Shown: in pieces, positions 14,572 through 47,638 of the stretch
How the letters are laid out: the number at the start of each line of letters is the position of its first letter
Numbering within the stretch: position 1 is the first letter of the stretch
Source of the DNA: Nemertoderma westbladi
Taxonomy: Eukaryota; Animalia; Xenacoelomorpha
Assembly (NCBI GenBank): GCA_032718475.1
Contig: JAUCBJ010005734.1
Location: 1 to 64,000 of the forward strand
DNA length: 64,000 bases
Reading direction: 5' to 3'
Made by a program: the position numbers and the translations under genes
Notes under the pieces: generated by a model
Database searches by the model: none
What the model was told of the DNA's origin: nothing
What the model saw: only the letters and a program-made list of their open reading frames with translations

Positions 14572-15190
14572 ATGACTGAGTTGATAGAAGATGATCTTGG
14601 TATTTGGGAGCGATATACCCTACCACTGCAAGCATTTGTTGATAGTTTGATAAGCGGCGACGGAAGACACACGACGGAAGACGATGGCCATTATATCGAA
14701 CCGCCAATATCAAAGGAATAGCTCAAGCATGAATTGGACTATAGAAAATTAACCGCTCACTATACGCATCGTAATGGTACGTATATGGACCTCTTAACTG
14801 CTGGTCATCCTATCGATTTACACGATATGGACGATGTAGACACCGAAAGGGAAATGATTATATTTAAATATCATGCCCAGCGAAGTCGGAATGATCAACT
14901 GAGAATTGAACATGAAAATTATATTCGAAACCGACTCGAAAGAGAAGATGTTGAAGAACCGGACAAACGTAATGACTTTAACAAATATTTAGAGTTCTTG
15001 AGAGAAACTTATCTCAATGTAGCTAGTCAGCAAAATCTCGAAACTCGATATCCTCAAGTTATACATCACAACCCTATGATGGAGCTTAAACGACTCTATT
15101 TTACTATGATGTATCTTACCGCCGATCGACCACTACCTGTTGTACCGGATAGCTTCGAACAGATGGAGGAATATTGTAAAACTGGAGAAT
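14572..15190 (+). pseudogene. N-terminal part of extra 3' ORF (ORF3) of BEL/Pao element A
   Basis: ATG 14572, in-frame TAG 14719. ELKRLYFTMMYLTADRPLPVVPDSFEQMEEYCKT aligns with EISRLYHTMQYLKAHEPMPAVRDEFDGMHLYRRT of element B ORF3. Confidence 0.8.
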
Positions 15191-16689: not shown

Positions 16690-16717
16690 TCGCGTTTGCA
16701 CGCTGGAGGGGGGGTTA

Positions 16718-16859
16718 TGTAGGGTAGAGACTTCGGCGGGATATTCAAACTCTCTATCTACCTTTGACTCAGATAACATTTCACTTTACCGGTACAGTTC
16801 TCTTGTTATCATTTCGCAAACAACTCTACTATAAGATTATACTATCGTTGACCGCTACA
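16718..16859 (+). repeat. Gypsy 3' LTR (142 bp)
   Basis: PPT GGAGGGGGGG immediately upstream; termini TGTAG...CTACA. Confidence 0.8.
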
Positions 16860-17066
16860 CACGCACTGTTAGTAGGCCAACTTTCAGATAAGACTCAAGG
16901 ATTATATAGTTTCTCTAGTCGCTTCCTACTGTCTGTATAGAATTATATTCTCATAAATGCCGTGGATTTTCAAAATTTTATTTTGTTCGAATTAACTTTG
17001 CTATAAAGATTACATTAAGTCCTCATTTGTATTTACTATATCTATTTGTACGATGATTATTCGAGT

Positions 17067-17150
17067 GGTTCAGTAGCTCAGTCGGTAAAGCGTTGGAAAT
17101 TATATGTAGTAGGTATCGAGTTCGAATCCTAGTAGGTGCGAATTATTTTT
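17067..17150 (+). promoter_or_regulatory. tRNA-derived Pol III A/B-box cassette inside 5' LTR
   Basis: A box TAGCTCAGTCGG (17074-85), B box GTTCGAATCC (17120-29), T5 run (17146-50). The acceptor stem does not pair. Confidence 0.7.
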
Positions 17151-17216
17151 GTGCTAAGTTTCAACTCATTTAAATTAACCGCTACAAATTAAATTGCATT
17201 TGCTCGAAGTAGATTA

Positions 17217-17365
17217 ACCAATGGGATTGCAGTTATTAGATAGTAACCAATGTCGTGCAAGTTATATATTCGCTGGACCAATAGTTATCTTTAAAAACCT
17301 ATTAGAACTCATAGAACAATCGAGAATTTTCTCGATTGATTGCAGCACAAATTTGCTATAAAAGG
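17217..17365 (+). promoter_or_regulatory. Candidate Pol II promoter in LTR (3 CCAAT boxes ~30 bp apart + TATA)
   Basis: ACCAAT at ~17217, 17246 and 17277; GCTATAAAAGG at ~17355-65. Confidence 0.55.
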
Positions 17366-18832
17366 TGCGATTTGTTCATTAGTTATTAGTATACATCATT
17401 ATCATTCTTGCTTATCCTAATATATAACTTTACTAGATTATCACTTATTAGTTATCTATTAGTTTCTTGTTACGTTTACGTATATCTTTTGTAATAAAAG
17501 TTAGAAATACTTGTTACATCTGCCCTTTTCCTATCATGTTTTACCACGGTGAACTTAACTGAGGGACAGGATGGCAGGCTAAACATCGGGCCACAGCGAT
17601 GAACGGGAACATCTGAGGAATGTAGAAGGAGACAACCCGCAATATCATTCTTAGTTATTCGCCCATCGCCTGAAAGGTTAGACAGCGTTCAATGCCTCGC
17701 TACCTAAGTGTAAGACCAAAGATCGAAGGTAGAGGTAGTGACACGCTGTGCGCTAAAATTTACATGTAGGGACTGTACTGTCTTAATTCAGAGAAAAAAC
17801 CCGCAGTAGACCTTCATATTCCTACGGGGGGAGAGGAGATCAGGCAGAGATACTAGTACACAGATAGGACGCAGGCACACCGGTACAAGGCATACACATT
17901 GGTAGGGTGCAGCAAACTGTACGCCTAACTCTTGCTAAGTATAGGTGCGTCTGTGACTGTTTGTAGTACAACGGTGTCCATTGCATTTGAACTTGTAGGC
18001 TAGAAGGGTTACTGTGTTTTACCTGAATTAGGATTGTACCGTTCAGGCGGTAGGGCAGTTTACAACTAGGCGCAAATAAATTGAGGCTATTTAGGGATAC
18101 TAACATCTACCGTGTCCCCACCAACACGTACCCATCTAGGCAACCAAAATTCTAGATAAGAACACCAGGCTAGCTATTAGTAACAGTACGCCTACTGTAG
18201 TAAACTAACACATTTCTTCTTAGTATTAGGGACCTGGTAAATTAAATTGCCGAATTCTGGGCGTAGTATTAACCTTATGCCTGAATTTGAGTCCTGGAAA
18301 TACACAAAAGGGGAAGGAGCCTTATCATTCGTGAGTATTGGACCTACAAGTTACAAAATTAGAATATTTGTAAAATGCACACCGGACCCAGTAATTATAT
18401 ATGTGAAGGAGCAAAACTGACTTTGACTGTTTAGAATCAAGACACGCGCGCGTTAGAAATTATTTACACCTCAAAATATATAAAATTAACTTTTGTCCGT
18501 ACTGCGCTTTGCCCGCTAGTTAGACATCTCTGCACCTAGCTAGCATCTCTCTATCCCAACCATATAAATCACACCGCGGCAAAGTATACGAGCCCCTTAG
18601 TCCATCAGTGAGTCAGCCTGATTTTAGGATTCGCTGCGCGGGATTTTGTTTTATCGAAGTTTGTCCGTTCGTAGACTGTTTTCTGCCTCACCGGTTATAA
18701 GAGACAAAATACTGCAATATATATTCGCTTACTTTGAGTTTACTGTTTTGGTGAGAAGGTCGGATTTATGATTTGATTCACAAACTTTACAGTAAGATAT
18801 TGCAGGGTATTTTGTTACTGTCTCTTCGCATA

Positions 18833-18918
18833 GTAGGAATATGTATTATTTAACATATTTCCTAGAGAAGTAGGAATATGGTATTATTTAACATATTTCC
18901 TAAAATAGTAGGAATATG
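18833..18918 (+). promoter_or_regulatory. Non-tRNA primer-binding region: three GTAGGAATATG copies abutting the 5' LTR
   Basis: Copies at 18833, 18870 and 18908; exact complement CATATTCCTAC at 17815-17825; no TGG-type tRNA PBS. Confidence 0.7.
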
Positions 18919-19715
18919 TTTTACTGAACTACGGTTCGGTAGGACTAAAGTTATTTGAAAATTTTGTATTTTGAGGTAAAAGTTTATATTTGATTAGCTA
19001 AGTGCTAATTTTTTGAAATAAAATTTTGATTTGAACCGCGTGTAAAATATTTTGGAATTGAATACTGGTGTTTAAAAGGGTTTAAATACCATATTGTACC
19101 GGTACAAAATTTTCGTAAAAGTAAAACCTAACTCTTTTGTTTTTCAGGATTCAGAGCTCATTTCTAGACTGTAACGAGAGCAAGACCGTGTTTAGCAAGT
19201 TTGGGAGATAGATAACTCAACAACTTTGGTTGGGAAAATCGCACTTCGTCCGCAACGCTGGAAACGGAAAGGTTCACGTCCGGTTTGTATCTGGGAATCT
19301 GTTTTTCTGGAGAATCATTGGAGGGGGTGAGTTCGAAAAGTTGCATAAATAAGTTAGGCATTACCGTATTAGTTAAAATTATTGTGGGTTCCACTGTCTC
19401 AAGTATTTATGCATTCCGTATGATTTCTTTGTTTATTGCTGAATTAGTCCGTATTATTGTATTTAATCTACCTTTTGATAACGTATATCGTTATCTGATT
19501 TATTTGTCGTAAAATTGGCCGGTAGGCTAATTTTATTATATACTTACTCCGTGACATTTATTTGCATAAAATTGGCCGCTAGGCTAATTTTATCCATCTG
19601 CTATAAAATCGGCCGGTAGGCTAATTTTATATGACTGTAATTAATACCGTTTTGATATAAAATACGGTAAGTTTGATATTTTGACACTCACTTTACTTGA
19701 CTTACAACTACCGAA

Positions 19716-22700
19716 ATGAGTGACAAACAAGACTATACGAAGAATACACAAACCGACTATGACTCATGCGACGCGGATAAGTCAGAAGCGGAAGAACCAC
19801 AGGGGAAGACTCGTGAGCCTACCGAACCTACACCGTGCGCGTCACCAGTACATCCAACGGGAGTACCGGATGCCGTAGTATGAGGCGACGGCAGGACCGA
19901 CGATTTCCTAATGTTCCCGCAACCTAGACATAGAGAAACGGACATGGTAAGTTCAGTAGGAAGCCAGGAGAGTGTAGTTAGAAGCGTCGGAGGATACATG
20001 GCGCATATTACCAGGAGTATTGGAGAGGGCCAACGCATATTAGACGAGTTAACCGCTCCGATGTCTCGGTTCGAGTTCTACACCCTCCAGGTTAGAGTAC
20101 AGAGTAAAGTACATAAGTCTGTAGATAATCTAATTGGTCTACAAGATCTAGCTAGACAGAGACAGGATATGGACACACAGTTTAGAATCCTCGAGAAATT
20201 AATGATCGCTAGGGAGAAACTGATTCAGTTTAAGACAACCGTTAGACAGATACAACAGGAACAAGCGGACCAGTTATTAGGTGAGTCGATTTCCGACGAG
20301 TTATTACAGCCCGAGGAAGAACAACTGTACCGACTGGATGGACAATTGAAACATCTGACGGATCACTTACGTATGTGCGGCGAAGACGTCGGCGATTTGG
20401 AAACCGTGCCGGAATATACGAGGGAAATTTCACCCGTACAAATCGAATCGGCACCGGGAATACTGGACCAGTCATTGGTGAGTATTCGCAGCGAAATTGG
20501 CGAGGTAAGTATAGTGACGTCAGAAATTTCTCGACAGCAACAACAGTACTATAGACAACAACGAGAAATTGAGGAACAAACTCAACTGTTAACGGTACAA
20601 GCAGCGGTAGATGAAGAGAAGCTACGCGTTGCGAATGTTGCGAGAATCTCTCATCTGCAAGAACAAGCCGAACTGGAAGCAGCTGAGATGGAAAGGTTAG
20701 AGCTAGAAATAGCACAGCGAACAGCGGCAGCTGAGTTAGCGCAACAAGCGGCAGCAGCTGAGTTGGAACGACAAATGGCAGCAGCTGAGTTGGAACGACA
20801 AGCAGCAGCAGCTGATTTAGAGCGACGAATTACGAGCAGCAGAATTGGAAGAACACAAGCGAGTTTCGGAAGCGAGAGCCGAGTTGAAAAAACGACAGAT
20901 AAAGGCTCAATCAGCTATACGACTAGCGGAGTTCGAGGCGCAACAACAACAGATGGAACAACGCGAGAAGGAAGTTAAACTTCATTTCGAACTCGAGAAG
21001 AAGGCGAGAGAATTAGCCAACGCTAAGGAAGATCTGGATCTACAAGCCCGCGATCGATCGATGAGATCTCGAGACGGACACGATCTAGACCGGTTGGAGG
21101 TAAGACATCGTCAAATTCAGGAACGAATGAAGGAAGGAAGCGTAGGAGCACCTGAGCGAGAACGGGAATTGGTTAAAGACTTATGTCAATGATTTCCGCA
21201 AGTAACTCCGATGTTCGCACTAATTACGAATAAAGGACCTGTTTCGATTGCTGGTAGTAGCAGTATATCTCCTATACACGATGCAACGGAACACAGGTAT
21301 GTTATTCCGGACAAGTTTGTACCGCCGAGAGCAATGTCATCGCCTATTCCGAGAGTTAAGGTAAGTAACCCACCGATTACCGATCGTAGTAGGTATTAGT
21401 CAGACCCACATTAATGACGACTAAACAGGTGAGTCAAACATCGACACCTAAACCTGTGACACACTACACAAACCACTTGATATTCAGGCCTTCAAGGCTG
21501 TTAGACTCAAACATTACGCGACCACGAATTCAGTTTACATCGCAATCTACGACTTCGAGGAAGACCTGCGAGCCTACCGAACAACGAAGACCAGTGGATA
21601 CGCGACCGCTTAACCAGTTTACATCGCAATCTACGACTTCGAGGAAGACCTGCGAGCCTACCGAACAACGAAGACCAGTGGATACGCGACCGCTTAACCA
21701 GTTTACATCGCAATCTACGACTTCGAGGAAGACCTGCGAGCCTACCGAATGACGGAAACCAGTAGACGATGTTCCGAAGCGGAATGTTAGAATTCGGACA
21801 ACCCAACGGACGCAAGCACGTCGGCCACCGTATCCAGGTGATAGTAGTACTTCGAGTGAATCGGATTACCCGGAACGCGAAGTGTTTAGAACAGGAGCGG
21901 CCGATGAATACAAATGCGAGCATTCAGACAATTCCTTTATAGACAATCCTCCACAAAATACACCAACACAGAAAGCGTTACAACCAATGGACGCTATCAG
22001 TACACAACAGTTCGCCGACATTCTGCGACCAGTTGTTAACAAGTTGGCTCAGATCGAGGAATGCTTGGAGGAAGTTCAAACAGATAGTTCGCGAAACACC
22101 GAATTCGAACACAATAGAAACCCGAAGGAACCTCAAAGAGTGATACCTTCAAGAAACACCTCGTATCAAAGAAAAGCGCCAAGACAGGAGAACATCAACT
22201 TGATTGCCAACCAAGGACGCGAAACTTTGAATGTAGCCGAGGAGATAGCCAAATTCGCAGCCAGACAAGGACTACAGATGCAACAACCACCTAAGTTTTC
22301 CGGTAATTCTAAACATTGGCACACGTTCATAGACTACATCGAATCTCAAATTGCGGCGTGCGCTTTTACCTCAAGGGAAAAGTTCAACTATTTGCTTCAA
22401 ACTTTGACGGGAGAACCAAAACGCTTAGCGGAGACTTCCGTTGGAGTACCAGATGCCTTCGAGTTAGCATACGATCGCTTAACTTCAATCTACGGAGGTA
22501 CAGTCAGTATGGCCAAGTCAGTGATAGAGGAACTCTGTAAGGGGGGGGGCTATTACTAAACCCGTCGACTTACTGAAGTTAGCTGACGAAATAAAAAACG
22601 CTATCACTACATTGAGATCTATTGGACAACTCGGTTACGGGAACACCCCTACAGTCCTATTAAAGATCATAGGAAGACTCCACCATCGACTTTGTCGGGA

Positions 22701-25700
22701 GTGGAGGAAGATCGAATACCAGCGGGAAGAACGGGGTGGATTCTTGAAACTGGAAGATGTGTACTTATTAATATCCAGGGAAGCGGTAGTGGAGACACGA
22801 TCCAACTACACTGACCAACACATCGTAGCAGAAGGAATCACCTTACCATCCTCAAACCGACAAAAACCCCAGACAACATCCACCAAGACGGCCACTTACG
22901 CCACATCGACAGAAACCCGACAATTTTCGGACGGTAGCCGCACCTATTGGGATCAAACAGACCAGACAACAACTGAGTGCAGATTGCCGGTTGCCAATAC
23001 TGCGAGCAGCTAGGCAAGCGGCACACCACTCACAAGTTAAGAGGTTGTCGGCTGTTTCGTGAGTTAAACTCGGAAGAACGACGGCTGCAGATACGGCCAT
23101 TGGACTCTTGTTGGCGGTGTACTCAACACGGACACGTCCGCAATGATTGTCCAAATACAGACACTTGTCCATCCTGTGGACGCAACCACGACGGTTTGCT
23201 CCATACGGACAGCCATACGCCGACCAAACGCTTCACTAGGGAACACCCAGAAGCAGCAGCGAAATGTAATACGGCCTACAAGAATCGTGAATCGAGAACG
23301 ACTCCAACGTTCGTGACGCATATTCGGGATTGTTTCCCAGAGCAATCCGGGTCTTCTGACGAAGAAACCGAGGACGACGACATATACTCAGATGGAGACG
23401 AACAACCATCGATCGCGCTTCTGACGACTGACCAACTAAAAGGTTTCAGCGTAATTCCTATTAAGATTACTGGCACCAAAGGGAGCAAAAGGATCTACGC
23501 TATTCTAGATTCAGCCTCATCTCACAGCTATGTGGATGAGAAGGTAGCTGATGTCGTGACGGATCTCCGACAAGGTAAGAACGTCAGTTACACCGTAAGT
23601 AGTATGCATGGACAACGTGCAATACCAGTGACACGAGTTAAGTTAAACTTAGACACTCTTCTTCCGAAATCGCAACACAGCGAAAAGGAGAGGTCTTTGT
23701 TACCCTTTAAGGATTTGACTTTTGCGGCCACCAAGGACTTTAGTAACCTACTGGGTCCAGTGCCGGAACAATCCCTAGAGGACCGTAAGTATTTCAGACA
23801 CCTTGGTGTACCTGAATGTCCTGTCAACTATAGATCAGTAGCAATGCTGATCGGGACGGATCAATTCAATTTACATCAAGTGTGGGAAACCAGACCATCG
23901 GTAGTCGTAGCAGGAAATGCATACGCCTGTCGAACTCCGATAGGTTGGTATACTCGAGCGCCTGTGCGCACACTAGATATAAGCGATGAGGAAGACGATG
24001 TACAAAGTACATGTAGTTTATTAACTACAACTTCAACTCATTCCTTTTCACACGACAAGGACTATACTACACTACGTTCGACAAAACACAACAACGTTAC
24101 AAGTACGACGTCTGTAGCTAATACGATAAGTCACAAAGAGCAGCCAATCCACCAGGTTAGTATAAAGATTGAGAAGGAGCGGAGTCAGGCAGAGGTTCCA
24201 TCAACGATAGATGATAACGCCGGAAGGCTTGTGAGTCTACCTCAACCAATAACTTCAACAACGCCCATCGATGAAGACGCGTTAAGAAATCATCAAGTGG
24301 AACAAGCTGCACTAGACAAGGAATTAACAGAGAAAACTATCAGGTGGTTAGAACAAGACACAGCCGAACCTGGTAGTTACGAACCATGTATGTCGGAACA
24401 AGAGAAACAATCTTTAAAGATCATGGAAGATACTATCCGCCAGACGAAAGACGGACATTATGAGGTAGGGATGCTATGGCGTAACCAACGTCCTAAACTT
24501 GCAAATAACTATCCGCTAGCCTTACGACGCTTACACTCAATACGACAACGTTTATTGAAGGACGAGAAAGCCCATCTGCAGTACAATACTCAGATGGAGA
24601 CGTATTTGACGAAAGGATACGCTATCAGAATGACAAACCCAGAGATTGTGACTGACCAGACATACTACTTGCCACATCACTACGTGAGACACCCCGATAA
24701 ACCAGACAAAGTACGTGTAGTCAATGACTGCGCGGCTCTGTTTGAGGGAATGTCTCTCAATAGTGAGTTGATGGATGGACCAAACATGAATAATTATCTC
24801 ATGGGGGTGATTATGCGCTTCCGTCAGCGCCAAGTAGCATTTACTTGTGACGTAGAAGCGATGTTTCACCAAGTGCGAGCGTTAGAGCGAGACAGAGACA
24901 GTTTGAGGTTCCTCTGGTACCCGGATGGAGACTTAAGTCAACCACCGGCGACTTACCAAATGCAAGTTCGCGTTTTCGGTGCCAGGGACAGTCCAAACTG
25001 CACTATGTACGCCCTAAAACAAACCGCTAGGGATCAGAAACATAAATATGACCCAGAGGTAATCCAAATCGTAGAACGAGACTTTTATGTGGACGATGGA
25101 TTACAAAGTTGTGACACAGTAGAACGTGCTATAACAGTAGCACATCAATTACGGGACTGTTTAGCAGGCGGAGGTTTTAACCTCACTAAGTTTGCCTCAA
25201 ACAGCGCCGAATTAGTAAATTCATTCGAAACGACTGAACGTGGGGGTGGGGACATTGACTTAGAGTTCGAACCACTGCCGACGACCAAGGTGTTGGGACT
25301 ATTTTGGGACCCGAACACAGACAACTTTCGAGTGAAAGTAAAACTGGACGCTGAAGGGGATTCTCTGACAAAGAGGTCTTGCTTGTCGAAACTAAGCAGA
25401 CTGTTCGATCCATTAGGTTTCATCAGCCCAATAATACTGCAAGCAAGAATATATATGCGCAGTATTTGGAAAGATGGACTGACATGGGACGAACCGATCT
25501 CATCCGAACAAGTGGACTTATGGAAGACTTGGGAGGCACAATTATCTTCGCTAGAGGATTATTCCATACTAGATATAGTCCGTTTTTACAGACGACATTT
25601 CCTGACAACTTAGAATTACATTGTTTTTCCGACGCCAGTGACAACGGCTTTGGTGTGACAGCGTATTTGCGCAGACAAGTAGACTCAGATGAGTTTGATG

Positions 25701-28354
25701 TATCGCTCATTACTTCTAAGGCTAAAACAATGCCTACTAAGTATATGACGACACCACGCGCTGAGCTACAAGCCGCAACTCTGTCAACGACAATTGTAAA
25801 CCTCATACAGACTGAACTACAGTCAAGTTTACAGATATTTTATTGGACTGACGCGACGTTAGTTTTATTTTATATAAACAACGACACACTTGAATTCAAG
25901 ACATTCGTAGCTAACCGTCGTGCAGAAATTCTAGACCGTTCAATAAAGGAAGATTGGCGACATTGTCCCGGACCACAAAATCCAGCTGATATTGCGTCGC
26001 GAGGAATGATGCCTGAGGAATTCTGTAAACCGGAAAACAAGAAATTTTGGCAACACGGACCACAATTCTTACAAAGAGCAACACAACATCGGGCCACTTT
26101 ACGATAACAAGTTTAATACTATTCCTAAGGACGCCGAAATTAAAAAACCAAAGAAAGGTAAAGCAAAGAAAAAGACAACGGCGAAACTTAAGAAGAAACC
26201 AAAGGCGAAATGGAAAAATATAACTTACAAAGTTAAGGCAGGAAGACTTGCGAGCCTTTCTCAACCAGACGTATCGCCAGACAGTCAACCAGACACGTTA
26301 CCAGACGGTCAACTAGACATTTTGCCAGACATGTCACTAGACGTTTCGCCGGATGTTCCGCGAAACATTTTACCAGACATTTCACAAGATGTTCTACCAG
26401 ACATTAGTAACGTAGCGACACATAGTAAAGCCGCAGTTTCCCTATTGGAGCGGCCTTCTATTGACAAACTACCAAACTTGACACCCTTGAGTAACCATAA
26501 GTACAGTGAAACCTCATGTATTACAGATGTGGGTAGTACCTACGCTAATGTAAATACAGGTGTTACTTTATGCTCAAGAGACATACCAACCTTACAACCT
26601 ACGGTGAGACCTGGGATTAATATCGGCAGAAAAACAAATTTACCGAAACCCAGCGATCCCATAGAGTTAAAACCACCATTACGAATCGACACACAAAGTA
26701 ATGACAATCAAGGTAAGAAGACAAAGAAGGACAAATTACTTGTAGACCCGGACGGATCAACAGTCAACAAGGGAATACTTACCGGCGGACTTGTGGGCCC
26801 ATCTAGTAAAACAAAACCTTCCAAATTCTCCATTGACTTACCTGATGACGTCACAAATACTTACGTCGACCGTATTGTAAATTTGACAGATTCTTGGACA
26901 AACGCATGCCGAAAATTAGCGTGGATTGTACGTTTTGTACAATACGTTAAAGGCAAACGCAACTTTACACGTCGACTCACATTGACTGAGATTGACAGAT
27001 GTGAAATTAAATTAATTCGCATTACCAATTGCGATATTTTGCACGCGAATTCACATCTATAAGTCAAGGTCAACCAATCAAGTCGTCACCAATACTGAGT
27101 TGGAGTCCGATAATTTATAATGGCTTAATTTGTCATAAATCTCGGCTTCAAAACATTGACTTTAATACTGATTTTAGATACCCGATAATAATACCACAAC
27201 ATCACGAATTACAACGTGCAATGATACTGGACGCACATTTACATCTAAAACACGCTGGAAGACACCACTGTCTTTCCTACTTACGTACAAGATTTGTATT
27301 AATTAGACCCAGTAAAGCGCTAAGTTCAGTGACACGTATGTGTCTTATTTGTAAAAAGGTACATTCTAGAATAAGTACCCAAGAAATGAGTGAACTTCCA
27401 CAAGCACGACTACAGGCATTCAGACCACCCTTCACAGAGACTGGAATTGACTGCTTTGGTCCCATACATACGAAACGTGGACGTATACTAGTAAAACGCT
27501 GGGGACTGATTTTCACATGCATGTCCAGTAGGGCAGTTCATCTTTCCACCAATGCCTTTATACTAGCATTGCGGCGATTTATCGCTAGACGCGGACTAGT
27601 GAAATGCTTGTACTCAGACCAAGGTACAAACTTCGTTGGTGCTCGAAATGAAATTGCTAGAGCCTTTAAGAAATTAGATCATGATCAAATCTCAAACGAA
27701 CTACGTCCTTACAAGATTGTTTGGAAGTTTAATCCTCCAGACAGTCCATGGAGAGGCGGAGTCTGGGAGAGATTGATTAGATCTATAAAAACAGCCATGG
27801 CAAAAGTAATTCCTGTAAACCACATCTTGACAGACAACCAACTGACGACATTGTTTGTTGAAATCGAGGCAATACTAAATACTAGACCAATAGTATTAGT
27901 ACCCGATGACAAACAATCCCAGTTTGCTTTAACACCGGCACACCTGCTGATGCAGGCACCGACTACATTAACGCCTATTTCTATTCCAATAGAAGGCGAT
28001 AGCTACGGTAGAAAAGCGTGGAAAATCACGCAACTACTAGCCAACAAATTCTGGGAAATATGGCAAAACCATTATTTGCCCTCTATTTCTGCCAGAACAA
28101 CTTGGTACAACAAAACTCGCGCTTTAAGAGCGGGAGATCATGTGCTGTTAGCAGAAGTGAATCTAAAAAGACGCTTCTGGATAACAGGTGTAATTTTAGA
28201 CACACATCCATCTATGGATGGAGTGACAAGGACTGTGACTGTACGGACAATTGACGGTCGTACAGTAGACAGACCGACTTAAAGTCTCGTACTTCTGGAA
28301 GAGACGCGAAACAAGTCTGGAGATTACAAGTCTCCAACTAATGTTAGTAAATAG
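19716..28354 (+). pseudogene. Element B gag-pol (coiled-coil Gag, CCHC knuckles, protease, RT, RNase H, integrase) with several stops and frameshifts
   Basis: PPKFSG..W..F, CWRC..GH, ILDSAS, YVDD, FSDAS, NPADIASRG, TGIDCFGP, SDQGTNF, GGVWER. Confidence 0.93.
21531..21770 (+). repeat. 84-bp in-frame tandem repeat in Gag (~2.8 copies)
   Basis: QFTSQSTTSRKTCEPTE repeated three times. Confidence 0.92.
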
Positions 28355-29016
28355 TAAGGAGTTTACAAATAGATTTCCACGTACCTGTACACTGTAGTAA
28401 ACACAGCGGTAGAATTCCATTGTCTTTATATGTGAACATTAAGGGTAGTACCCTTATGTGTCACATAGGAGCGGGATTTGTAGGTATAAGAAATGGAATT
28501 CTACTTGGAACTCACAATATTGAGACATTTTCAAAATTTTAGAAAATCCATTTGGATTTGAAAAAATTTTAAAATTTTCTCCAGTGAATAGATTTCAGGG
28601 TACAGTCGGGTGGAACTTAAAATTAGAGAAACAAGAGAACGGAAGACTCGCGAGCCTTTCTTAAATTTTAATAAAATTTACACGGTCTTGTTTCAATAAG
28701 TTACGTCAAATAATAGACTTCCCTATATTTATTACTAACTCTTGATTGCTTATTTTCTGATAATAGTTTGGGATCAAAAAGTGAGTATTTTAGACTCACA
28801 GCCAGTTTAGCCCAAATTCGTTTTTATTTCGGCAAAAAATTTTAGATAAGAAGCAGCGTGTCATTAAAGAAACCCTAGATCTTAGGCTATGGGTAGGAGG
28901 TTAGAGCATTGTCGAGCCAAAAGGGCAGACGAAAACTCTCACATCTCCTCACAACTAACAATAAACTCTGTTGTATTCCCTCTAGTAGCAATGATTATGT
29001 AACTACACTTCTAATA

Positions 29017-32000
29017 ATGGCGAAAGGGATACATGGAGAGACGAGATGGGGATATGATATCCAAGAGGAAGCAGCAGCGCCATTCGAACGATTTGGAGCT
29101 AAGGATTACACCATATTTGGAATAAAGGATTTATCAGAAAGTACAGCGAAACTCGCAAAGACCAAATATGACTCGAACGTATTAAAGAGAAGGCAAAATG
29201 CGTTAAATGAAAGAATCGAAAGTTTACGCAAAACCTTCAATGAACTTTACCCGTACGACGGTTTATGTGATACGGGAGATATTAGCGAAGATCCCGACAC
29301 CGAAATTAGTCGTTTGTATCATACTATGCAATACCTGAAGGCGCACGAACCTATGCCCGCGGTACGCGATGAATTCGATGGAATGCATCTTTACAGACGA
29401 ACTTGAGGGGACGATAGAGAAACAAAGGAAGCATTTTCAGTTTATAAACTTTATTATCAATGTGGTGCTTGTATGCGCGAACAACGAAATGCGATTCCGA
29501 TGCGTTTGAATAAGGAAAATCCCGAACCGATATTGGCGAGGTGTTCGAACCATCAACAACTACGCTACCAGGAAGGAGGGTATCCTTCATCGAATCCATA
29601 TCATTCATTCGCTATGACTGGACCAAAGGCGGGAGAAATTGTCGTTTACCCACCTAAGGTTGTTGAACCCGATGTATTTGAACTTACGCTGGACGAGGCG
29701 ACTCAGTCAACCCGCGAAAAGAAAGAAGCTCTTAGCCTATACAGAGCCTACAAGGCTTTCGAGAAAGGTGAGATGGAAGAATGGGGCGGAAGACTCGCGA
29801 GCCTACCTTACCATTGGACGTCACACGATCAAACTTCAGCTAAGGAGATGACACCGGAAGTTTTCGAGAGTATAAACTTTGCTCAAAACGTTATTCAGAG
29901 ACTACAGATTGCATCCCCGGAAAGGACAAGAGAAATGCAACCGTATAGTACTTCAACTACGAAACCATTGAGTACGACACTCAATTTCCCTATTAGTATA
30001 CCAGTTCGACAAGATACAACGTATGAAATACCTATTGTGGATCATCCGGAAATCATTTCGAACTTAGAGTTTCTTCCTGCAGTTGTTCTAAGCGATATGG
30101 TTAAGATATATGATTTACGTAGACATATTACACAAAAGGTCGTGCATAATGTCCGCCTCATATTCAAGACTTTAGGGAACTGGATAGAGCTGGCGCTGAT
30201 ATAGCTCCGAGTAACCTGAAAGGATATTTAACCAAAACAATTCGCTTATGGATTGGAACAGGAACCTTTGAGTCGGATACAGATATCGCTGCGGACTGGC
30301 AAGGTAAAGTCATTCGTTTCGAGGACGAGAAAGACATAGAGAAGATTTGGCAACCTTCGGAAGAATTATTGGATGAATGGAATAGGACGTTTAGATCTTT
30401 TCAGGAAAACGGTTACATGTTTTATGATAACGAGGGCGGCAGCCATCAGCAGAGTCTAACCTCCAAGACTATACAAATTAGAGCGGCAGACGGAGTTTTG
30501 CATGTTTTCAGTAGACAAAGGAGCGACAAGCGAATGCCGATACCTCCAGGAACTACCAAGCGGCACCATTTCATCACTAATATAGTAAAGAAAATGGACC
30601 AAGCTTGCAATATCGATGCTAGAATGTTACCAAAGATGGTGAGAAATATGATTTTAGATAAAACTGTTGTAAAGATTGGATCAGGAGTAAGAGAGGACTT
30701 AATTAGCGACTTCGCCGGCATGTCGGACAGTGACGACCAATTACCGACACCTTACGTCGACACTCGACCTCTTATACTGTGGTCTATAGAATAAGGATAC
30801 TTCCGTGAGTATGATACTCAGAAAACCGGAACTGGATACATTTCCTACTTGATGTTTAATTGGGATTACAAGGAAAGTAAAAGAACAAAGTATATCGAAA
30901 CGTATGGAGAAGGTGATACTCCAGATATAAATGAGTTTGAATCACAGCTCAAATGGAGAGGATGCGTATATTGGGCTATTACTTCACCTCCAAGAGCGGT
31001 ACTACAATATTATTTAGCGATAGAGTCATCAGTGAATGTTTGCTTAGTCGCCGACATTGTGTCTCGGACTCTTAAAAGACATCCACTTTGCCTCGGAGAA
31101 GATCATACATTCTATGCGGAAGGGAGAATTCATACCGATGTGTTTAGACGGTTTCTCGAACCCTTCTACAATTCCGACGCTCAGTGTAATGCCTTCACTC
31201 GAGCAGGATTTAGTATATTTCGAGACGTGTATCTTCGCTGTGCGGGATCTCTTATCGAAAGACCATCTACGTTTACATTGTTACCCTATGAAGGAGAACG
31301 TATCGTGGAGCTTACCGACGAATCACGGCACACGCGCGCGCCTATCGGTCACTTAGGTGATGATTTCGAAGTAACGACGACCATCGATGATCCTTTAGAG
31401 GAACTTCTTGAGATTGAAAGGAACCTCCCGAAGAAATCTCAGACGGAGATTCGACAATTAGAAGCAACAGATGCTGTAGTTTGCATACAACCTTCTGAAA
31501 CATACCAACCTATCGACCCAGACGATTACGACTATAGTGTGGGAGGAAGCGCTCGACCCATTGGCGATCTTATATATGAGCGAGTGTGGTACCCTGCTAA
31601 TACGATATGTGGTAAATGTGGCGTCGCTGGCCATCATTCGACAAAGTGCAGTGGAAAGCACATTACTACAACTCAACTAATCTGTGGATGGTGTGGAGAT
31701 CAAGGGTCCCATACATTTTATACTTGCTGGAGATTTATGGCTCAATGCACATACTGTAATATAAAGGGACACCGAGCATCTGAATGTCAATTGAGAGACA
31801 TACCTTACGAACACGAATCTGTAAAACTCGTGCGAAAACTATTTGATGATTGGGAAGATTTGGCTGATGAACATGTATCGGCGCAAAGAAGACGGTTCCC
31901 GATGAGAGCGCATCTTGGATTTTGGGCGGTAAATCCTCAAACTATGATGTCGGAAGGATATATCTCCGCTATGCCACAATATGACGAACTCATCGAGGTA

Positions 32001-32738
32001 GTTGATATTTTGCCTCACGATAGTGGATTCCGAGTTGTGCGCGAATGTTTGTTACAGATACACCCTGACAATAAGAATACATGGAATTTCCAGAAAGTCG
32101 TTAATCGTATCACGTATGGTGAATTTGATCGTTTCTGAATGGAAAAGCGGAACAAGGGAGCTTGGTTAACCGTCGCATGGGCGTACCGAGCCGCGTTCTA
32201 CCATAAACGTATACGAGCGAGCGTATTCGAGGAAGAGAAGGTCCTAGAGGCGACCAACATACCAGCTACTCCAGTCGCGCCGTCTGCACGTCACCCTCGG
32301 GAGGACGGACAGCACAGGATCATACGGGTTCAGAAAGTGGGCCAACAATTAAAGAAAACTATCAATGTTGAAGAACGAAGGGGATACGAACCGACTATTC
32401 GAATTACTCAGGATACGGTTTCGCTTCCCAGAGAACCGCAAGGAGGATCGGGACATATACCAGCTGATCAAAAGGGGGCGCAAGCTTCTCTTGGGTCTGC
32501 GTCGTCCGCTTCTCGCGCGTTCCCAGACGTTTTACCAGCGGTAGATACAACCGATCGGTCACGAGGAATTGGACGAGGATTTGGGATAACTAAGAGACGA
32601 ATATGTGAGACAATGGTCGTACCATCTCCCAACGTCCAAAGTAAACCAGTGGCTCGCCCCACAAGTCCCATATCACGAGCTAAATCACCGATACGCAGTT
32701 TTCGAGGACGTGGCAGGGCTCGATCCGCTAAGCGTTAA
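29017..32738 (+). pseudogene. Element B ORF3: novel N-terminal domain + DEDDy 3'-5' exonuclease + 3 CCHC knuckles + basic tail (3 stops, 1 frameshift)
   Basis: Reading through stops: WQGKVIRFED, YMFYDNEG (ExoI), IQIRAADG, LPKMVRNMILDKTVVKIGSGVREDL (ExoII), PYVDT, W...QYYLAIE (ExoIII-like); CGKC..GHHSTKC, CGWC...HTFYTC, CTYC..GHRASEC. Confidence 0.8.
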
Positions 32739-33620
32739 AGCGGGAAGGAAGGAGTGGACGGAAGACTCGTGAGCCTTTCTTATGAATTGTTTGTTTTATG
32801 TATTATTTTATGCATTGTTTAGGTAAATTGAATTGTTTATGTAAATTGAATTGTTTATGTAAATTGAATTGTTTGTGTAATTTGTATTGTTTAAAATTTA
32901 TATTGCTCTAAATTTATGCAATTTATATTGTTCTAAATTTATGCAATTCATATTATTCTAAATTTATGGAATTTACATTGTTCTAAACTTATGTATTTGT
33001 ATTGTTCCAATTTGAAATTTAGAAAGTTTATATTTAGAAGGAATTTATATTTGAAAGATTTATATTTCATATTTGAGATGTAAAAGGAGTTTATATTATT
33101 CTAAACTTATGCAGTATTATTCTAAACTTATGCAATTTAGTAAAGATTTATTTAGAAAGTGCTATATTTGTAGTCATTCCAAACTTATGCAATTTATTGT
33201 TTTGAATATTATGCAATTTATATTTTATAAAGAAGCAGTATTTGTATTCACAGTAAATAGAAGGCAAGAGCAGACGGAAGACTTGTGAGCCTTTCTTGTG
33301 ATTTATTTGAAATTATCCGAACTTATGCAATTTGTTTTATATTTAAGTAGTATTAGTATTTGTGATTGTTTGAATTTATGCAATATTTGAGATGCAATAG
33401 ATTTATTTTGGTGAATTTAATTTAGATTTATATTGTACTTACTTAATAAAGCCTTAAATACGTAAAGTTTGAATTTGTAATTATTTTGTATCGAATTATT
33501 ATGTAGAGGTATTATTGTTGAGATTTAATTTGTAAATATGTAAGTACGTCCCAAGTATTCCATAATTTGATTAGTATTGGTGAAAACCGTATATTTTATG
33601 CACGATAATATCCTGTTTTC

Positions 33621-33629
33621 ATGGAGCGG
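33621..33629 (+). promoter_or_regulatory. Polypurine-tract equivalent of element B (ATGGAGCGG)
   Basis: Directly abuts the 3' LTR start TATAGA. Confidence 0.75.
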
Positions 33630-35543
33630 TATAGAATTATATTCTCATAAATGCCGTGGATTTTCAAAATTTTATTTTGTTCGAATTAACTTTGCTATAA
33701 AGATTACATTAAGTCCTCATTTGTATTTACTATATCTATTTGTACGATGATTATTCAAGTGGTTCAGTAGCTCAGTCAGTAAAGCGTTGGAAATTATATG
33801 TAGTAGGTATCGAGTTCGAATCCTAGTAGGTGCGAATTATTTTTGTGCTAAGTTTCAACTCATTTAAATTAACCGCTACAAATTAAATTGCATTTGCTCG
33901 AAGTAGATTAACCAATGGGATTGCAGTTATTAGATAGTAACCAATGTCGTGCAAGTTATATATTCGCTGGACCAATAGTTATCTTTAAAAACCTATTAGA
34001 ACTCATAGAACAATCGAGAATTTTCTCGATTGATTGCAGCACAAATTTGCTATAAAAGGTGCGATTTGTTCATTAGTTATTAGTATACATCATTATCATT
34101 CTTGCTTATCCTAATCTATAACTTTACTAGATTATCACTTATTAGTTATCTATTAGTTTCTTGTTACGTTTACGTATATCTTTTGTAATAAAAGTTAGAA
34201 ATACTTGTTACATCTGCCCTTTTCCTATCATGTTTTACCACGGTGAACTTAACTGAGGGACAGGATGGCAGGCTAAACATCGGGCCACAGTGATGAACGG
34301 GAACATCTGAGGAATGTAGAAGGAGACAACCCGCAATATCATTCCTAGTTATTCACCCATCGCCTGAAAGGTTAGACAGCGTTCAATGCCTCGCTACCTA
34401 AGTGTAAGACCAAAGATCGAAGGTAGAGGTAGTGACACGCTGTGCGCTAAAATTTACATCTAGGGACCGTACTGTCTTAATTCAGAGAAAAAACCCGCAG
34501 TAGACCTTCATATTCCTACGGGGGGAGAGGAGATCAGGCAGAGATACTAGTACACAGATAGGACGCAGGCACACCGGTACAAGGCATACACATTGGTAGG
34601 GTGCAGCAAACTGTATGCCTAACTCTTGCTAAGTATAGGTGCGTCTGTGACTGTTTGTAGTACAACGGTGTCCATTGCATTTGAACTTGTAGGCTAGAAG
34701 GGTTACTGTGTTTTACCTGAATTAGGATTGTACCGTTCAGGCGGTAGGGCAGTTTACAACTAGGCGCAAATAAATTGAGGCTATTTAGGGATACTAACAT
34801 CTACCGTGTCCCCGCCAACATTCTGTTAGGAAGTTGCCGTACCCATCTAGGCAACCAAAATTCTAGATAAGAACACCAGGCTAGCTATTAGTAACAGTAC
34901 GCCTACTGTAGTAAACTAACACATTTCTTCTTAGTATTAGGGACCTGGTAAATTAAATTGCCGAATTCTGGGCGTAGTATTAACCTTATGCCTGAATTTG
35001 AGTCCTGGAAATACACAAAAGGGGAAGGAGCCTTATCATTCGTGAGTATTGGACCTACAAGTTACAAAATTAGAATATTTGTAAAATGCACACCGGACCC
35101 AGTAATTATATATGTGAAGGAGCAAAACTGACTTTGACTGTTTAGAATCAAGACACGCGCGCGTTAGAAATTATTTACACCTCAAAATATATAAAATTAA
35201 CTTTTGTCCATACTGCGCTTTGCCCGCTAGTTAGACATCTCTGCACCTAGCTAGCATCTCTCTATCCTAACCATATAAATCACACCGCGGCAAAGTATAC
35301 GAGCCCCTTAGTCCATCAGTGAGTCAGCCTGATTTTAGGATTCGCTGCGCGGGATTTTGTTTTATCGAAGTTTGTCCGTTCGTAGACTGTTTTCTGCCTC
35401 ACCGGTTATAAGAGACAAAATACTGCAATATATATTCGCTTACTTAGAGTTTACTGTTTTGGTGAGAAGGTCGGATTTATGATTTGATTCACAAACTTTA
35501 CAGTAAGATATTGCAGGGTATTTTGTTACTGTCTCTTCGCATA
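33630..35543 (+). repeat. 3' LTR of element B (1914 bp)
   Basis: Copy of the 5' LTR plus 17 extra bp (34821-34837); followed by GTCTG. Confidence 0.95.
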
Positions 35544-36903
35544 GTCTGACTGTCCTACATATTCTGGACCACTGTATTTTACTAGTCAGCTAGTCTGCTA
35601 GTACAAAATACCTACTACAGTACTAGGTACTGGTAACTACATATCCATAGTCTGGACCAATACTGGTACTTATCAGCTTATTGCATATTGTTCTAAGGAC
35701 GTTAGTCTGTTATTGTCTGATGGTGAAAATTCGCCCTGTCAGCAAATCCACTAAGAAGATTTAATTGCTTCTTGCTGCTTTTTCCCAAACGAGAAGCCTG
35801 TTATGATTATACCTTGTATAACGGTATAAGCGAATCGTTTGAAGGTAACTTGCAAGTTCAAATATTGGATCGCTTTGTTACATAGTTTGTATATAGGCCT
35901 ACAGGCCTACCATACTACAACTGTACTGGCATATGTAAGTTCTACTTTTCTACTGTCCTAAAGTAAGTACAACCATTTTAAAATTTATAAAGGAAAACGG
36001 AAAGAGGAGAGTTGTGAAGTTGTGAGAGAGCAAATAATAAGATAAGCCTATATTTAATATTACGATATCATTAAGTCATTAGGCTATAATCCTGTAATTT
36101 TATTATATAAATTCGAATTAGTGCTGCACCGGTACTGCTGTAGTGGCAATATGCATTGCATAGTGTTGCCTTAAATTAAACATCTGACATTATAGTGGTA
36201 GGCACGTGGATCCAGACCCAAATACTGGAATACCACTGGCTGATAATTTTACCCATAATTAATTACTACCGGTATACGGTGTACGGGAAACTTATGATAC
36301 GGTACTTTAATTAATACCCGGCTAGTATTATTAACACTAATATTCCTAGTTGAAGTAGCTTCATTTGGTCATATTGACATTACATGTATTGTACTGTTAT
36401 AGGCTATTTCTGTATTACAACCTTTTAGTAGGCCTGTTGGTAGGATATATAGAAATCATTGTATATATTTCAGATAAGTTTATATATATTTGAGTACCGG
36501 TATAACCTTTAGTACACTAGTACTGTAGTAGGCATATGATTTGTGCCCCGCTGTCCTGTATATACAAAGAAGCAGATAATACAATACAGATACCGGTATT
36601 TAAACTTTCTATAATCAGATAATAGGCTAGACCTATTTACTAAATTATCAGTTAAATTATCATAAATTAAATATTTTATAAACTCTATAGAATCAATAGA
36701 CCTCTGTACTGTAACTTGTTTATTTAAACACTATAAGTCACTGTTTATAGTCTGATAGTTATTAGGCCTAACACTTGACAGGACTGGTATTACCATTCAA
36801 GTGTACCTTTATTTATCTTTAAAAGCCTATAGGCACTGGCGCTATACTGTATAGTTTATCAGTACCCAGGTAGTATATAGGTACGTTTATTTCTCAATTA
36901 AAT

Positions 36904-39900
36904 ATGTCTGACATTACCCCGATGCCGACAAGCACTAACACAGACGTTACTACATATGAACGGGAATCTTTGTCCAATCCAACCATCATAGAAGGTCACG
37001 AGAATAATAATTTCCTTCTTACGAATGGCAAACAAGTTATTGACCATGATGTCTCCCCGACTGGCTCAACTACAGATAATGTTAATGACTTAGACGTTAC
37101 ACAAGTGACGACTATAGAAGGTGCAACAGCAGCACCCATTTTTAGTTCTACTATGAATGTAGAGGGGGAGCATATAGGCCTAGGCTTACCTGAATATATA
37201 ACTAAAATGGATAAAATGGCCCTTGAGGAACTATATGATCAAGGGGTTTCTCGCTCAAGTAATGCTACCACTTTTAAGCGGTCTTTGGCTGCTCATAGAG
37301 GTGTTTTCACTCGCACTCGTAAGGATATCAATGCAGCCATCATTGATAATCCGGAATTAGGTTGGAGTGAAGCTAATAAATTAATGTGTAGAGTACATTC
37401 AGCACGTGATAAATATTTGTTCTTAGCTCAAGCATATGAGGAAGTAGCAAACCGAAAACAAATTGCTCATATGCAAGAATATATTGATACAAAATTTGAT
37501 ATTACTCTCCATCAATTAGAACTCGAAACAGAAAATAGGTTAGCAAAGCAGCAGTCTGAGAGGAAGCGGCGGGCTAGAGCACAAGCTACACGTTTAGCAG
37601 ATGAAGATGCAGAGGAAGCTGTGGAAGAAGATTTGAGAAAGATTGCAGAATTACAAATAGAACGAAATAAACTGGAGACGATCAAAGCCATGAATACAAA
37701 AAAGGAAGAAATGGTAAGTCGGCACCAGCGAGAGCAATTGCAATGGCATATGTCTAATCCTGGTTCGGTAAATGGCTCCATAACCAGTAGACATAGCGGA
37801 GCTTCCAGAACCAGTCTCCGATCTTGCACTTCATTGTCAAATGGTGCATATATATATAACAGAGATAAATCTGATCATGATAAAGTAAAACAAAGTAATC
37901 CTACAGAACAGCCTTCTTATAGCTTAATCCAGATACAAAGTACTGCTACTGTTACTGAACCTATGGTTGTTAGACCAAAAATTCTGTCTGGTGCTGCTGA
38001 GAGTTCCAACATACAAAATACATGTCCAAATGTACAGAGACCTGCCATAAAAGGTACAAAAATATGTGACAATCCCTCTTTGGGGAAGGGTATATTATCT
38101 AAACCAAAAGCGTCACGTCAGTTGAATTTAGACAATAACGATACTCACCCTAGTCATAAACTAGCAGGTCAAGAATCAAATACTAGTAAAACTTATGTTG
38201 AGGTACCAGTATATAATGATAATAATAACCATAGTAAAGATTTCAGTAGGCAAGGCGATAATACAAATAGTAGGCCTACCCCACCTGACACCAAATCGTG
38301 TCCTTTCCTAAGAAAGGAACTTAAATTTGGAGCTGAAAGCCGTAGACCAACATCTTCTGATCGAAACTACTTAGTAAGTGTAGAAGGTAGTAATGGAGAG
38401 AAGTCTTATATTGCAAATGAACAGGAGGAAACAATGACCCGTGTGGAATTCTCAGACCCATTGTGTCAGCCACCTAAAGGTTTTTCTAGATCATTTTCAC
38501 AAATTGACGAGTATGACAACCTTATACAACCTCAGCACCTTAATCAACCAAGGTCATCCACATTTGTTAATCCTAGAATTTCATACTCCGACAATTGTCA
38601 TCAAATTGGCAGAACTCCAAGAGAAAACGATTTCCCAACTGGAAACCATCAGAGTAGTCAACACAGTGGCATTGGCTATTTGCATCAGGAACCCCAAAGT
38701 GATAATCATAAGGGTAACCATAACCAGCAAAGGTTTCAAACAACTAAATCCCGAGATGAAGTGAGAGAGGTTCCTAATTCTCAAATAACACAAGATCATG
38801 TGCTGTCTCAGTTGATGGAACGTCTCGATGGGATGGAACAGGAGTCTGTATTACAATGGGATCTATTGGGGTCTATCCAGAAACAAGTCACTGAATCTCG
38901 AACAAGATGTGTACCTACTGAACAATCAACAACACCACGTCATAATAATGGAGTACAAATACTGACGCCATCACCGCCATATAACGTAATCGGTCAACCA
39001 CCATCTTTTAGTTCTGTAACTAATTCAAATTTAAACACATCCATCCTCAATGAGAGTTTTGTAAGGATAATGTCCAGATCCGATGCAAGGGAGTCAGCCA
39101 CCATGGGTGGTACAGTGGCAAAATTCAGTGGGAAGCCCCTTTCTTGGCTAGCATTCCGTAATCATTGTTTGACTTCAATCAGTAGTTTCCCATTGACGCA
39201 AGAAGAGAAATTAAATTATTTATTACAATGTTTGGAAGGTGATCCCTATAATTTGGCCAAAGGATACCAGGGAACTACTAATGGATTTGATTCTGCCTGG
39301 GGTGCGATATGCCAACGTTTTGGAAATGAACGCGATATTGCACAGGAAATGTTTAGACATTTGACAAAGGCCAATAAAGTATCGGAATCTGGATTAATTA
39401 CATTTATTGATGAATTATTCACAATACGTCGACAACTTGAAACACTTGGAGCACTAGCAGAGTTCGATAATCCTATAACTATTGGACAAATTTCAGCTTT
39501 GTTACCCATGTCCGTAGGGAGACAATGGAGCAAACGACTTGTTAGATTCAATGAGAGTAAGCAAAGAGAACCAACAATGGATGATTTTCTTCAATTCTTA
39601 CGTCAACAGCAGACAATTATACTCAAGGAAAGGATGTGAGTTGGAGACGTCAGATCGAACCATGATGTATCATCTCAGTCACAACAATGTTATAGAAAGA
39701 TGCGTTCACAGAAGGCATGTTGTAACTCAGAATCAAGTGATACTGATAATGAAACAGAGGTCATTCAACAGGTTAAAACCAAGAAAGCATTCAAGTCAAC
39801 TCCATCAAAACAGCAGTTCGATCCAACCTCATTTAAGAGTACACCTAAGACCTCATCCAATGGTGAATCAAAATTTATAGTTGATCAATTTATTGAAAAG

Positions 39901-47318: not shown

Positions 47319-47638
47319 TACGTACGTCTGTAAAGATAATTTGAACTCTTATCTATAAATCGATGGAAAGTATAAGTACTATACGTAAAATTGTTAGTGA
47401 TCGAGAAGTTTATAGATAGTAGATTTGTATTAGTTATATACCACATATTTTTTGGAAATGTATAAGTTTATATTTTTTCTTCTAACTGATGTACGTCATG
47501 ACTATGTCTCTATTTTATATATATATATATTATGATGGTTGAACAAACATATAGAGCGTGCATTTTTTCTTGAGTTATTATTTAGGGAAATATTTATTAG
47601 TCCGAGTGCATTATAGCCTAAATAACAACTGGGAGCGG

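Follow-up and report, generated by a model that had tools for sequence, protein, structure and literature searches.

Analysis of a 64,000-nucleotide stretch of the Nemertoderma westbladi genome (assembly GCA_032718475.1, contig JAUCBJ010005734.1, positions 1 to 64,000 of the forward strand; hereafter, the window) revealed a large BEL/Pao retrotransposon, recently inserted and now decayed, that carries an additional open reading frame (ORF3) between the end of the integrase (28282) and the 3' long terminal repeat (LTR, starting at 33630). With high confidence, ORF3 is a real, inherited accessory gene whose product has the DEDDy fold of 3'-5' exonucleases; the leading role for this product, which we propose only tentatively, is the trimming of 3' ends in the replication of the element itself. 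The element, 18,608 bp in total, consists of the following parts:

16931..16935, forward strand: left copy of the 5-bp target-site duplication GTCTG (right copy, 35544-35548), the longest duplication that fits both LTR ends
16936..18832, forward strand: 5' LTR, 1,897 bp
19716..28282, forward strand: gag-pol of the BEL/Pao type, identified by Pfam and by domain order
29017..32738, forward strand: ORF3, 1,240 codons, with the ATG at 29017 and TAA at 32736-32738
33630..35543, forward strand: 3' LTR, 1,914 bp

The first-pass annotation of this DNA described ORF3 as a frame of about 1240 codons with three stops and one frameshift, and the coordinates together with a shuffle test bear this out. The stops are located at 29404, 30792 and 32136 and the frame change within the overlap 30150-30204; the two frames contain one stop in 391 codons and two stops in 843 codons, compared with minima of 6 and 22 stops when the bases were shuffled 2,000 times and all six frames were counted. 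With four breaks in 1,240 codons, ORF3 is no more damaged than gag-pol, which has at least 10 breaks in 2,855 codons (counted by eye in three-frame output, where one shift could be programmed), as expected if ORF3 was intact at the time of insertion. The best 19-residue hydropathy mean in ORF3 is 1.39, so that the protein lacks a membrane helix, and no env family match was found for the element proteins in scans of Pfam, NCBIfam and further family libraries; these results support the earlier view that ORF3 is not env.

A phmmer search over 1,835,955,588 proteins returned two matches, of which one, P0121 (E 4.4e-7), a protein of 558 residues from a 7,460-bp ENA contig, is a true relative of ORF3. 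The other, the plant protein P0120, was dropped as a relative because its match is limited to the zinc knuckles. Comparison with P0121 and motif analysis delineate the following regions of ORF3:

29191..29403, forward strand: N-terminal helical segment, shared with an ORF3-like fragment at 14965-15183
30285..31070, forward strand: predicted DEDDy-type 3'-5' exonuclease domain with insertions, carrying the set D-E-D-E plus Y and interrupted by the stop at 30792
31608..31787, forward strand: three CCHC zinc knuckles recognized by pattern match, also present in P0121
31820..32010, forward strand: C-terminal segment retained in P0121 according to the alignment
32139..32738, forward strand: low-complexity tail with a basic end, absent from P0121

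The DEDDy motifs quoted in the first-pass annotation are all present and in the order given there: the catalytic positions are D at 30426 and E at 30432 (ExoI, DxE), D at 30696 (ExoII), the YVD signature at 30759, and Y at 31011 with E at 31023 (ExoIII). The register of ExoIII is fixed by the spacing between the conserved W and Y, which is 12 in 39 of the 47 WRN-like reference sequences (11 in one, with the motif lacking in the other seven), 12 in P0121 and 13 in the window. The annotation also noted a glutamate in place of the usual aspartate in this motif, and this proved to be the case: ExoIII of the window reads YxxxE, whereas D occupies this position in all 40 references that have the motif, and P0121 has YxxxD. 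A literature search for DEDE variants found no paper. The features shared with WRN, EXD2, Mut-7/Nibbler and EXD1 are the ExoI-II-III order, the LP..L.D..K.G...D block, the VD and the W-x12-YxxxD motif; in contrast to this branch, ORF3 shows insertions (spacing of 90 between ExoI and ExoII, with 69 in P0121 and a median of 58; 109-111 between ExoII and ExoIII, with 70-71), twilight-zone identity and no Pfam match.

For the unbroken frame 30150-30791, the ESM Atlas search yielded 30 look-alikes, 28 of which carry PF01612; the cluster with the top score (0.93) consists mostly of rotifer proteins. The expectation that the repaired domain would resemble PF01612 or WRN_exo thus held for the look-alikes, although not for the direct Pfam comparison. 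The only NCBIfam match of the domain is to DnaQ, at ExoI (E 0.05). Placement within the fold relied on profiles built from fetched reference sequences (WRN-like, RNase D and Pol I). The best PDB matches of the WRN-like seed profile are WRN, Mut-7 and EXD2, and of 642 window tiles, the ExoII block of ORF3 ranks highest with the WRN-like profiles (E 0.056-0.7). The score of the window domain exceeded those of all 60 shuffled sequences, and that of P0121 exceeded 1,000 of 1,000 (E 0.004-0.006). When ORF3 and P0121 were combined in a two-row family, the scores against the WRN-like profiles were 29.0 and 34.5, with shuffle maxima of 19.4 and 20.8 (100 shuffles each), compared to 10.4 and 20.6 against the RNase D and Pol I profiles; hhalign in the global mode gave no match. 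AlphaFold2 models were of too low confidence (predicted local distance difference test, pLDDT, 31.5 for the domain alone and 29.2 with P0121). As the first-pass annotation proposed, the ORF3 domain in all likelihood adopts the DnaQ-like DEDDy fold and belongs to the WRN/EXD2/Mut-7 branch, a placement to which the Atlas look-alikes, P0121 and the profile tests all point. Among the sequences examined, many bacterial proteins (P0001-P0102) contain a WRN-like exonuclease domain apparently fused to a galactokinase, methyltransferase or ThyX domain.

The alignment of ORF3 with P0121 spans 531 columns at 24% identity, with the nuclease domain, an acidic linker, the three knuckles and the C-terminal segment (which gave no family match) in collinear arrangement. 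The catalytic motifs of P0121 are canonical (DTE / RQD / YLRGD), with all four acidic residues retained. All 10 structure rows obtained with the Atlas model of P0121 are PF01612 clusters, and the model aligns with two stand-alone 3'-5' exonucleases at template modeling (TM) scores of 0.73 and 0.70; its top feature match is a Euglenozoan cluster combining PF01612 and zf-CCHC, which, at 0.87, is below 0.9 and serves as a lead only. The knuckles of ORF3 (31608-31649, 31683-31727 with a five-residue spacer, and 31746-31787) match PF00098 with E 0.003, below the curated cut-off; the three CCHC patterns and the basic tail, with R or K in 10 of the last 30 residues, are as originally reported. The first 400 and last 200 residues of ORF3 have no counterpart in P0121, whose end falls close to the stop at 32136. 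This stop may thus be the natural end of ORF3, given also the ATG that directly follows; accordingly, the tail may be either the ORF3 terminus or a small ORF of its own. A CxxC...CxxH pattern (29461-29553) in the N-terminal part of ORF3 is a possible additional zinc site. Word-index protein searches identified no relative among 4,655 and 549 candidates, and searches for related loci found none in viral contigs or metagenome contigs, with two chance matches in phages.

Two other BEL elements are present in the window, with pol sequences 37-47% identical to that of the ORF3 element. Downstream of the integrase of one of these (pol identity, 38-47%), we detected a related sequence:

14572..15189, forward strand: ORF3-like fragment lying 3' of the integrase in another BEL element and truncated by a Gypsy fragment

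The part at 14965-15183 is 36% identical to the ORF3 N-terminus over 73 residues (pairwise E 1e-8; 0 of 3,000 shuffles), with no likeness at the DNA level. The fragment likely belongs to the second BEL element, and its presence there indicates that ORF3 was probably inherited rather than acquired in a one-off event. The first-pass annotation had made its proposal depend on a recognizable exonuclease fold and on the occurrence of the ORF beyond this copy; the fold evidence was found, and P0121 and the 14572-15189 fragment are related ORFs outside it. Furthermore, with rotifer proteins forming the closest Atlas cluster and an identity of only 24% to the sole relative, ORF3 looks more like a member of an old accessory family than like a recently captured host gene. 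The third BEL element (36874-44300) is decayed, with no LTR pair seen in the window.

The organization of the element suggests how ORF3 could be expressed. The candidate signals are:

19667..19672, forward strand: candidate splice donor GTAAGT just 5' of gag, one of seven GTAAGT in the element
28955..28985, forward strand: candidate branch point and splice acceptor, 32 nt 5' of the ORF3 ATG

Acceptor-like sites with a branch motif number three in the 18.6 kb (six if the branch motif is not required). We infer that ORF3 would be translated, like env, from a spliced RNA, using the donor at 19667 and the acceptor at 28985.

The assignment of the element to BEL/Pao, already made in the first-pass annotation, is secured by its Pfam domains and by the order gag-protease-reverse transcriptase-RNase H-integrase. 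Gag-pol encompasses a DUF1759 capsid, knuckles, a protease, a reverse transcriptase with YVDD, an RNase H of PF05380, an integrase and DUF5641; Pfam detected PF05380 (E 2.6e-16 and 7.9e-19), PF18701 (E 1.3e-19), PF03564 (E 3.3e-8) and also the integrase zinc finger in pol. The region between RNase H and integrase includes a long, low-complexity, lysine- and proline-rich insertion (26100-26900). The LTRs correspond to the single long direct repeat in a self-comparison of the window (16935-18834 and 33629-35545). They end in TAT...ATA rather than TG...CA and are flanked by a perfect 5-bp duplication, to which there are two 4-bp alternatives that differ by one base. The two LTRs differ by 13 substitutions over 1,900 aligned bases and by one indel, so the insertion is young. 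The purine-rich run preceding the 3' LTR is very short. An Rfam search across 16700-35700 gave no matches.

The target of the insertion was the 3' LTR of a GC-rich, 5'-truncated Gypsy fragment (15187-16935, with its end near 35559). The portions of this fragment around the element (15187-16935 and 35549-35559) comprise the end of RNase H, integrase, a polypurine tract and a short LTR. Insertion into the LTR of a BEL element was considered and rejected, that LTR being part of the Gypsy fragment.

As in the viral family Belpaoviridae (Semotivirus), to which these retrotransposons correspond, Gag combines DUF1759 with a triple knuckle, the enzymes follow the protease-reverse transcriptase-RNase H-integrase order, and PF05380 and DUF5641 are present (PMC8742986; PMC3118150). 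The element differs from this family in its length (18.6 kb against the usual 4.2-10 kb), its LTRs of 1.9 kb (0.2-1.2 kb in the family), the lack of a tRNA primer site and a third gene that is not env (PMC8742986). Thus, the element is BEL/Pao by its pol, yet departs from the family in primer, size and third gene. According to the ICTV profile, BEL/Pao elements are primed by tRNA-Arg or tRNA-Gly through an 18-nt site, and their replication is poorly understood (PMC8742986). In the present element, no TGG follows the 5' LTR, and a site for tRNA-Arg or tRNA-Gly of the BEL/Pao type is lacking; instead, the bases adjoining the LTR are complementary to a sequence within the LTR:

17815..17825, forward strand: candidate self-primer of 11 nt, matching exactly the reverse complement of the sequence right after the 5' LTR
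18833..18843, forward strand: primer-binding position, not of the tRNA type, pairing at 11 of 11 bases with the element's own LTR
17831..17855, forward strand: predicted second duplex with the LTR end (approximately 18806-18829), adjoining the primer duplex

Among 5,000 dinucleotide shuffles, complementarity of this extent arose once at the same offset and 10 times when any of four offsets was allowed; of 14,700 internal positions, 15 have 11 or more complementary bases. The 11-mer is oriented such that its 3' end lies at the LTR end, as required of a primer. An initiator-like YYANWYY sequence (one of 19 such matches in the LTR) is found at 17814, at the start of the self-primer, and is followed by AATAAA at 18075; TATAAA at 17357 and AATAAA at 17493 form a rival pair. 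Of 935 windows lying downstream of the primer, that of the second duplex is the best partner for the last 27 LTR bases; a broader comparison was less decisive, with 51 of 1,820 LTR windows and 95 of 2,000 shuffles scoring equally well. The predicted fold leaves five unpaired bases between the primer duplex and the next stem. The primer-site 11-mer occurs three times in 18833-18920 (with repeats at 18870 and 18908), within hairpin-forming repeats.

Two other sources of a primer were considered. A tRNA-like segment with A- and B-box-like sequences (17054-17139, and at the corresponding position in the 3' LTR), detected by ARAGORN only at a relaxed threshold, was rejected as the primer, its match to the primer site being poorer than that of the 11-mer. 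The 3' end of polyadenylated RNA is a poor fit, the nearest AATAAA being 330 nt before and 250 nt after. Taken together, the sequence features make it likely that the element primes reverse transcription with its own RNA and not with a host tRNA. In this respect it resembles the Tf1/sushi elements (Tf1, Tj1), in which the primer site is complementary to the element's own LTR and abuts the LTR end, next to an adjacent LTR-LTR duplex (PMC10085805, PMC4600332, PMC6317226). However, Tf1/sushi elements are chromoviral Gypsy elements, whereas the present one is BEL/Pao and differs from Tf1 also by the distance of about 1 kb from primer to site, a third duplex that was not found, TA rather than CA ends and the threefold primer site. 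Self-priming of the Tf1 type requires three duplexes (PMC10085805).

Considering the combination of an exonuclease fold, zinc knuckles and an apparent self-primer, we tentatively favor, among the roles weighed here, an inherited accessory DEDDy 3'-5' exonuclease that would use its knuckles to bind the element's own RNA and would trim 3' ends during replication. Under this scheme, the transcript would start near 17815 and fold back onto the primer site; cleavage of the short unpaired linker that follows the 11-bp duplex, comparable to the RNase H cut in Tf1 self-priming, would free the primer; the knuckles would hold the RNA and present 3' ends to the nuclease; and the nuclease would strip unpaired 3' bases, leaving a paired end for the reverse transcriptase. 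If the cut in the five-base linker were imprecise, a 3'-5' exonuclease could remove the resulting tail, and the self-complementary primer site lends circumstantial weight to primer trimming. It is conceivable, albeit far from assured, that the substrates are indeed the primer or the RNA and complementary DNA (cDNA) ends of the element. There is a cellular precedent for the architecture: the DEDDy domain of the Trypanosoma brucei RNase D, TbRND (PDB 7c42/7c45), is likewise followed by CCHC zinc fingers, and these C-terminal fingers provide RNA binding and raise 3' trimming; unlike ORF3, TbRND is a cellular mitochondrial enzyme, and it has four fingers (PMC7797062). The resemblance of TbRND to P0121 likely reflects shared design rather than orthology.

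Several observations weigh against this proposal. With regard to the fold, the Pfam, PHROG and PDB sequence searches gave no match for the window nuclease domain, and neither this domain nor P0121 matches PF01612 above the cut-off; the Atlas recognition value of 2183 and the 164 shared features fall below the bars of 2300 and 170, respectively; the best profile E-value of the window domain alone is just 0.056 and covers only ExoII; and the Atlas model of P0121 has a pLDDT of 0.44, with all rows under the family-naming bar. The ExoIII glutamate may signify reduced or no activity. As for inheritance, the ORF3-like fragment does not extend to any nuclease domain, approximately 3.2 kb, including an insertion, lie between it and its integrase, and P0121 is known from the protein alone. 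On the side of priming, the third duplex of the Tf1 'pretzel' is unsupported (rank 67 of 977), and with the downstream repeats included, the pairing probability of the first site drops to 0.15 from about 1.0. Nuclease and primer are linked by their co-occurrence in one element only, and Tf1, which self-primes, is not known to carry such a nuclease gene. Finally, the available account of the rotifer DEDDy ORF3s reports no clear effect on copy number (PMC5408684).

A close second to the trimming of the element's own ends, although doubtful in itself, is a role in counter-silencing, whereby the enzyme would degrade or over-trim host PIWI-interacting RNAs (piRNAs), small interfering RNAs (siRNAs) or their precursors aimed at the element. 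The nearest folds include enzymes of small-RNA pathways (Mut-7, EXD1-like), and a separate spliced ORF would suit a factor acting in trans; moreover, overexpression of TbRND, the closest architecture, depletes guide RNAs (PMC7797062), and the arenavirus exonuclease provides a precedent for suppression of defence (PMC7968707). Weighing against this possibility, the rotifer elements that carry DEDDy ORF3s remain covered by small RNAs (PMC5408684).

The element further contains a repeated sequence that could be a ligand of one of its proteins:

19804..33292, forward strand: 17-nt near-palindromic motif in nine copies, starting at 19804, 21559, 21643, 21727, 26241, 28641, 29788, 32760 and 33276

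At up to three mismatches, there are 12 matches in the window, all within the element, compared to 0.08 expected. Seven of the nine copies are independent, three being part of one 84-bp tandem repeat. The copies are located in gag, pol, the spacer, ORF3 and the 3' region in differing frames, which implies that the motif acts as a nucleic acid; as RNA, it folds weakly. A protein encoded by the element might bind this motif.

This brings up the alternative that the ORF3 product is a catalytically dead RNA-binding adaptor that packages or transports the element RNA, possibly via the 17-nt motif, as exemplified by Egalitarian among such adaptors. EXD1 and Maelstrom, to which the adaptor would also be comparable, are described as inactive DEDD derivatives (PMC5408684). 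The glutamate at an ExoIII position that is aspartate in 40 of 40 references, the three knuckles with the basic tail, and a motif repeated nine times in this element only, within the window, would all suit such a function. We nevertheless consider it unlikely, because acidic residues occupy all four catalytic positions and the tyrosine is retained, P0121 carries the canonical residues, and a D-to-E variant (DEED) is found also in rotifer ORF3s (PMC5408684). Returning to 3' trimming of the element's own RNA, an extension that we regard as speculative and rather improbable is a giant BEL/Pao lineage in which a self-primer replaces the tRNA primer and the element supplies its own primer-maturing 3'-5' exoribonuclease, with the knuckles recognizing the 17-nt tag. 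If true, priming in this lineage would be self-contained and served by its own processing enzyme.

Given that the element, at 18.6 kb, is far beyond the usual 4.2-10 kb of its family (PMC8742986), proofreading or end-polishing of cDNA could be envisaged to permit a long genome, much as ExoN is linked to large nidovirus genomes, and the WRN-like reference profile finds its best PDB matches in WRN exonucleases, enzymes that act on DNA. We deem this quite improbable: an interaction with the reverse transcriptase is an assumption only, a separate spliced protein with knuckles of the nucleocapsid type is nearer to RNA trimmers than to polymerase proofreaders, and ORF3 and the LTRs themselves make up much of the extra length. 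Least credible of all is a one-off passenger, i.e., a host gene or foreign fragment without a role, for although the third BEL element of the window has no ORF3 match and the ORF3 element is known from one full copy, ORF3 lies in sense orientation, without introns, with its own acceptor and a decay rate like that of gag-pol, contains the family 17-nt motif (29788), and has a related fragment in another BEL element and a collinear relative in P0121.

The rest of the window contains further repeats. The region 1-7094 is, by eye, a Penelope-like element with a 1,121-residue frame (2344-5709) that has no Pfam match and shows what we take to be reverse transcriptase-like and GIY-YIG-like motifs; the region includes a 2,393-bp near-perfect direct duplication containing 127-bp tandem repeats. 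An insertion resembling miniature inverted-repeat transposable elements occupies 11636-13743; its inverted ends have G/C runs, and a 36-bp tandem array lies inside it. Tandem arrays with 15-bp and 34-bp units are found at 46413-47500 and 59640-62000.

The statement in the first-pass annotation that DEDDy extra ORFs occur in bdelloid rotifer elements is borne out: such ORF3s are known in the Juno, Vesta and Athena/Terminon elements (Rodriguez, Kenefick, Arkhipova 2017, PMC5408684). For the nematode Cer1, also named there, an open-access literature search yielded no such paper, and the claim is not confirmed. As described in PMC5408684, the ORF3s of Juno/Vesta and Athena/Terminon resemble the present one in being non-env genes between pol and the 3' LTR that encode DEDDy proteins with one D-to-E change and no membrane helix and are probably spliced. 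The present element differs in the BEL/Pao carrier and in the location of the change, at ExoIII (DEDE) instead of DEED; its ORF3, judging by the published descriptions, is set apart by the length of about 1,240 codons, the N-terminal region, the three CCHC knuckles and the conserved C-terminal segment. The ORF3 product would act like a rotifer-type accessory nuclease and is DEDDy by fold but not by the ExoIII residue. In the open-access literature (Repbase and most subscription journals lie outside this scope), we found no BEL/Pao element reported to carry a nuclease ORF3 or to prime itself; the word 'exonuclease' is absent from the available text of PMC3118150 on BEL/Pao, and PMC5718144 names just the rotifer case of a nuclease ORF3.

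Retrotransposon nuclease ORF3s have been known in rotifer Gypsy-type elements, without a demonstrated function. The present analysis adds a new family of proteins combining a predicted DEDDy domain with zinc knuckles, which includes an unbroken natural member, P0121, and comes with a candidate substrate, the 11-nt primer duplex. An intact protein and a defined candidate substrate make the role of retrotransposon exonucleases accessible to experimental test.

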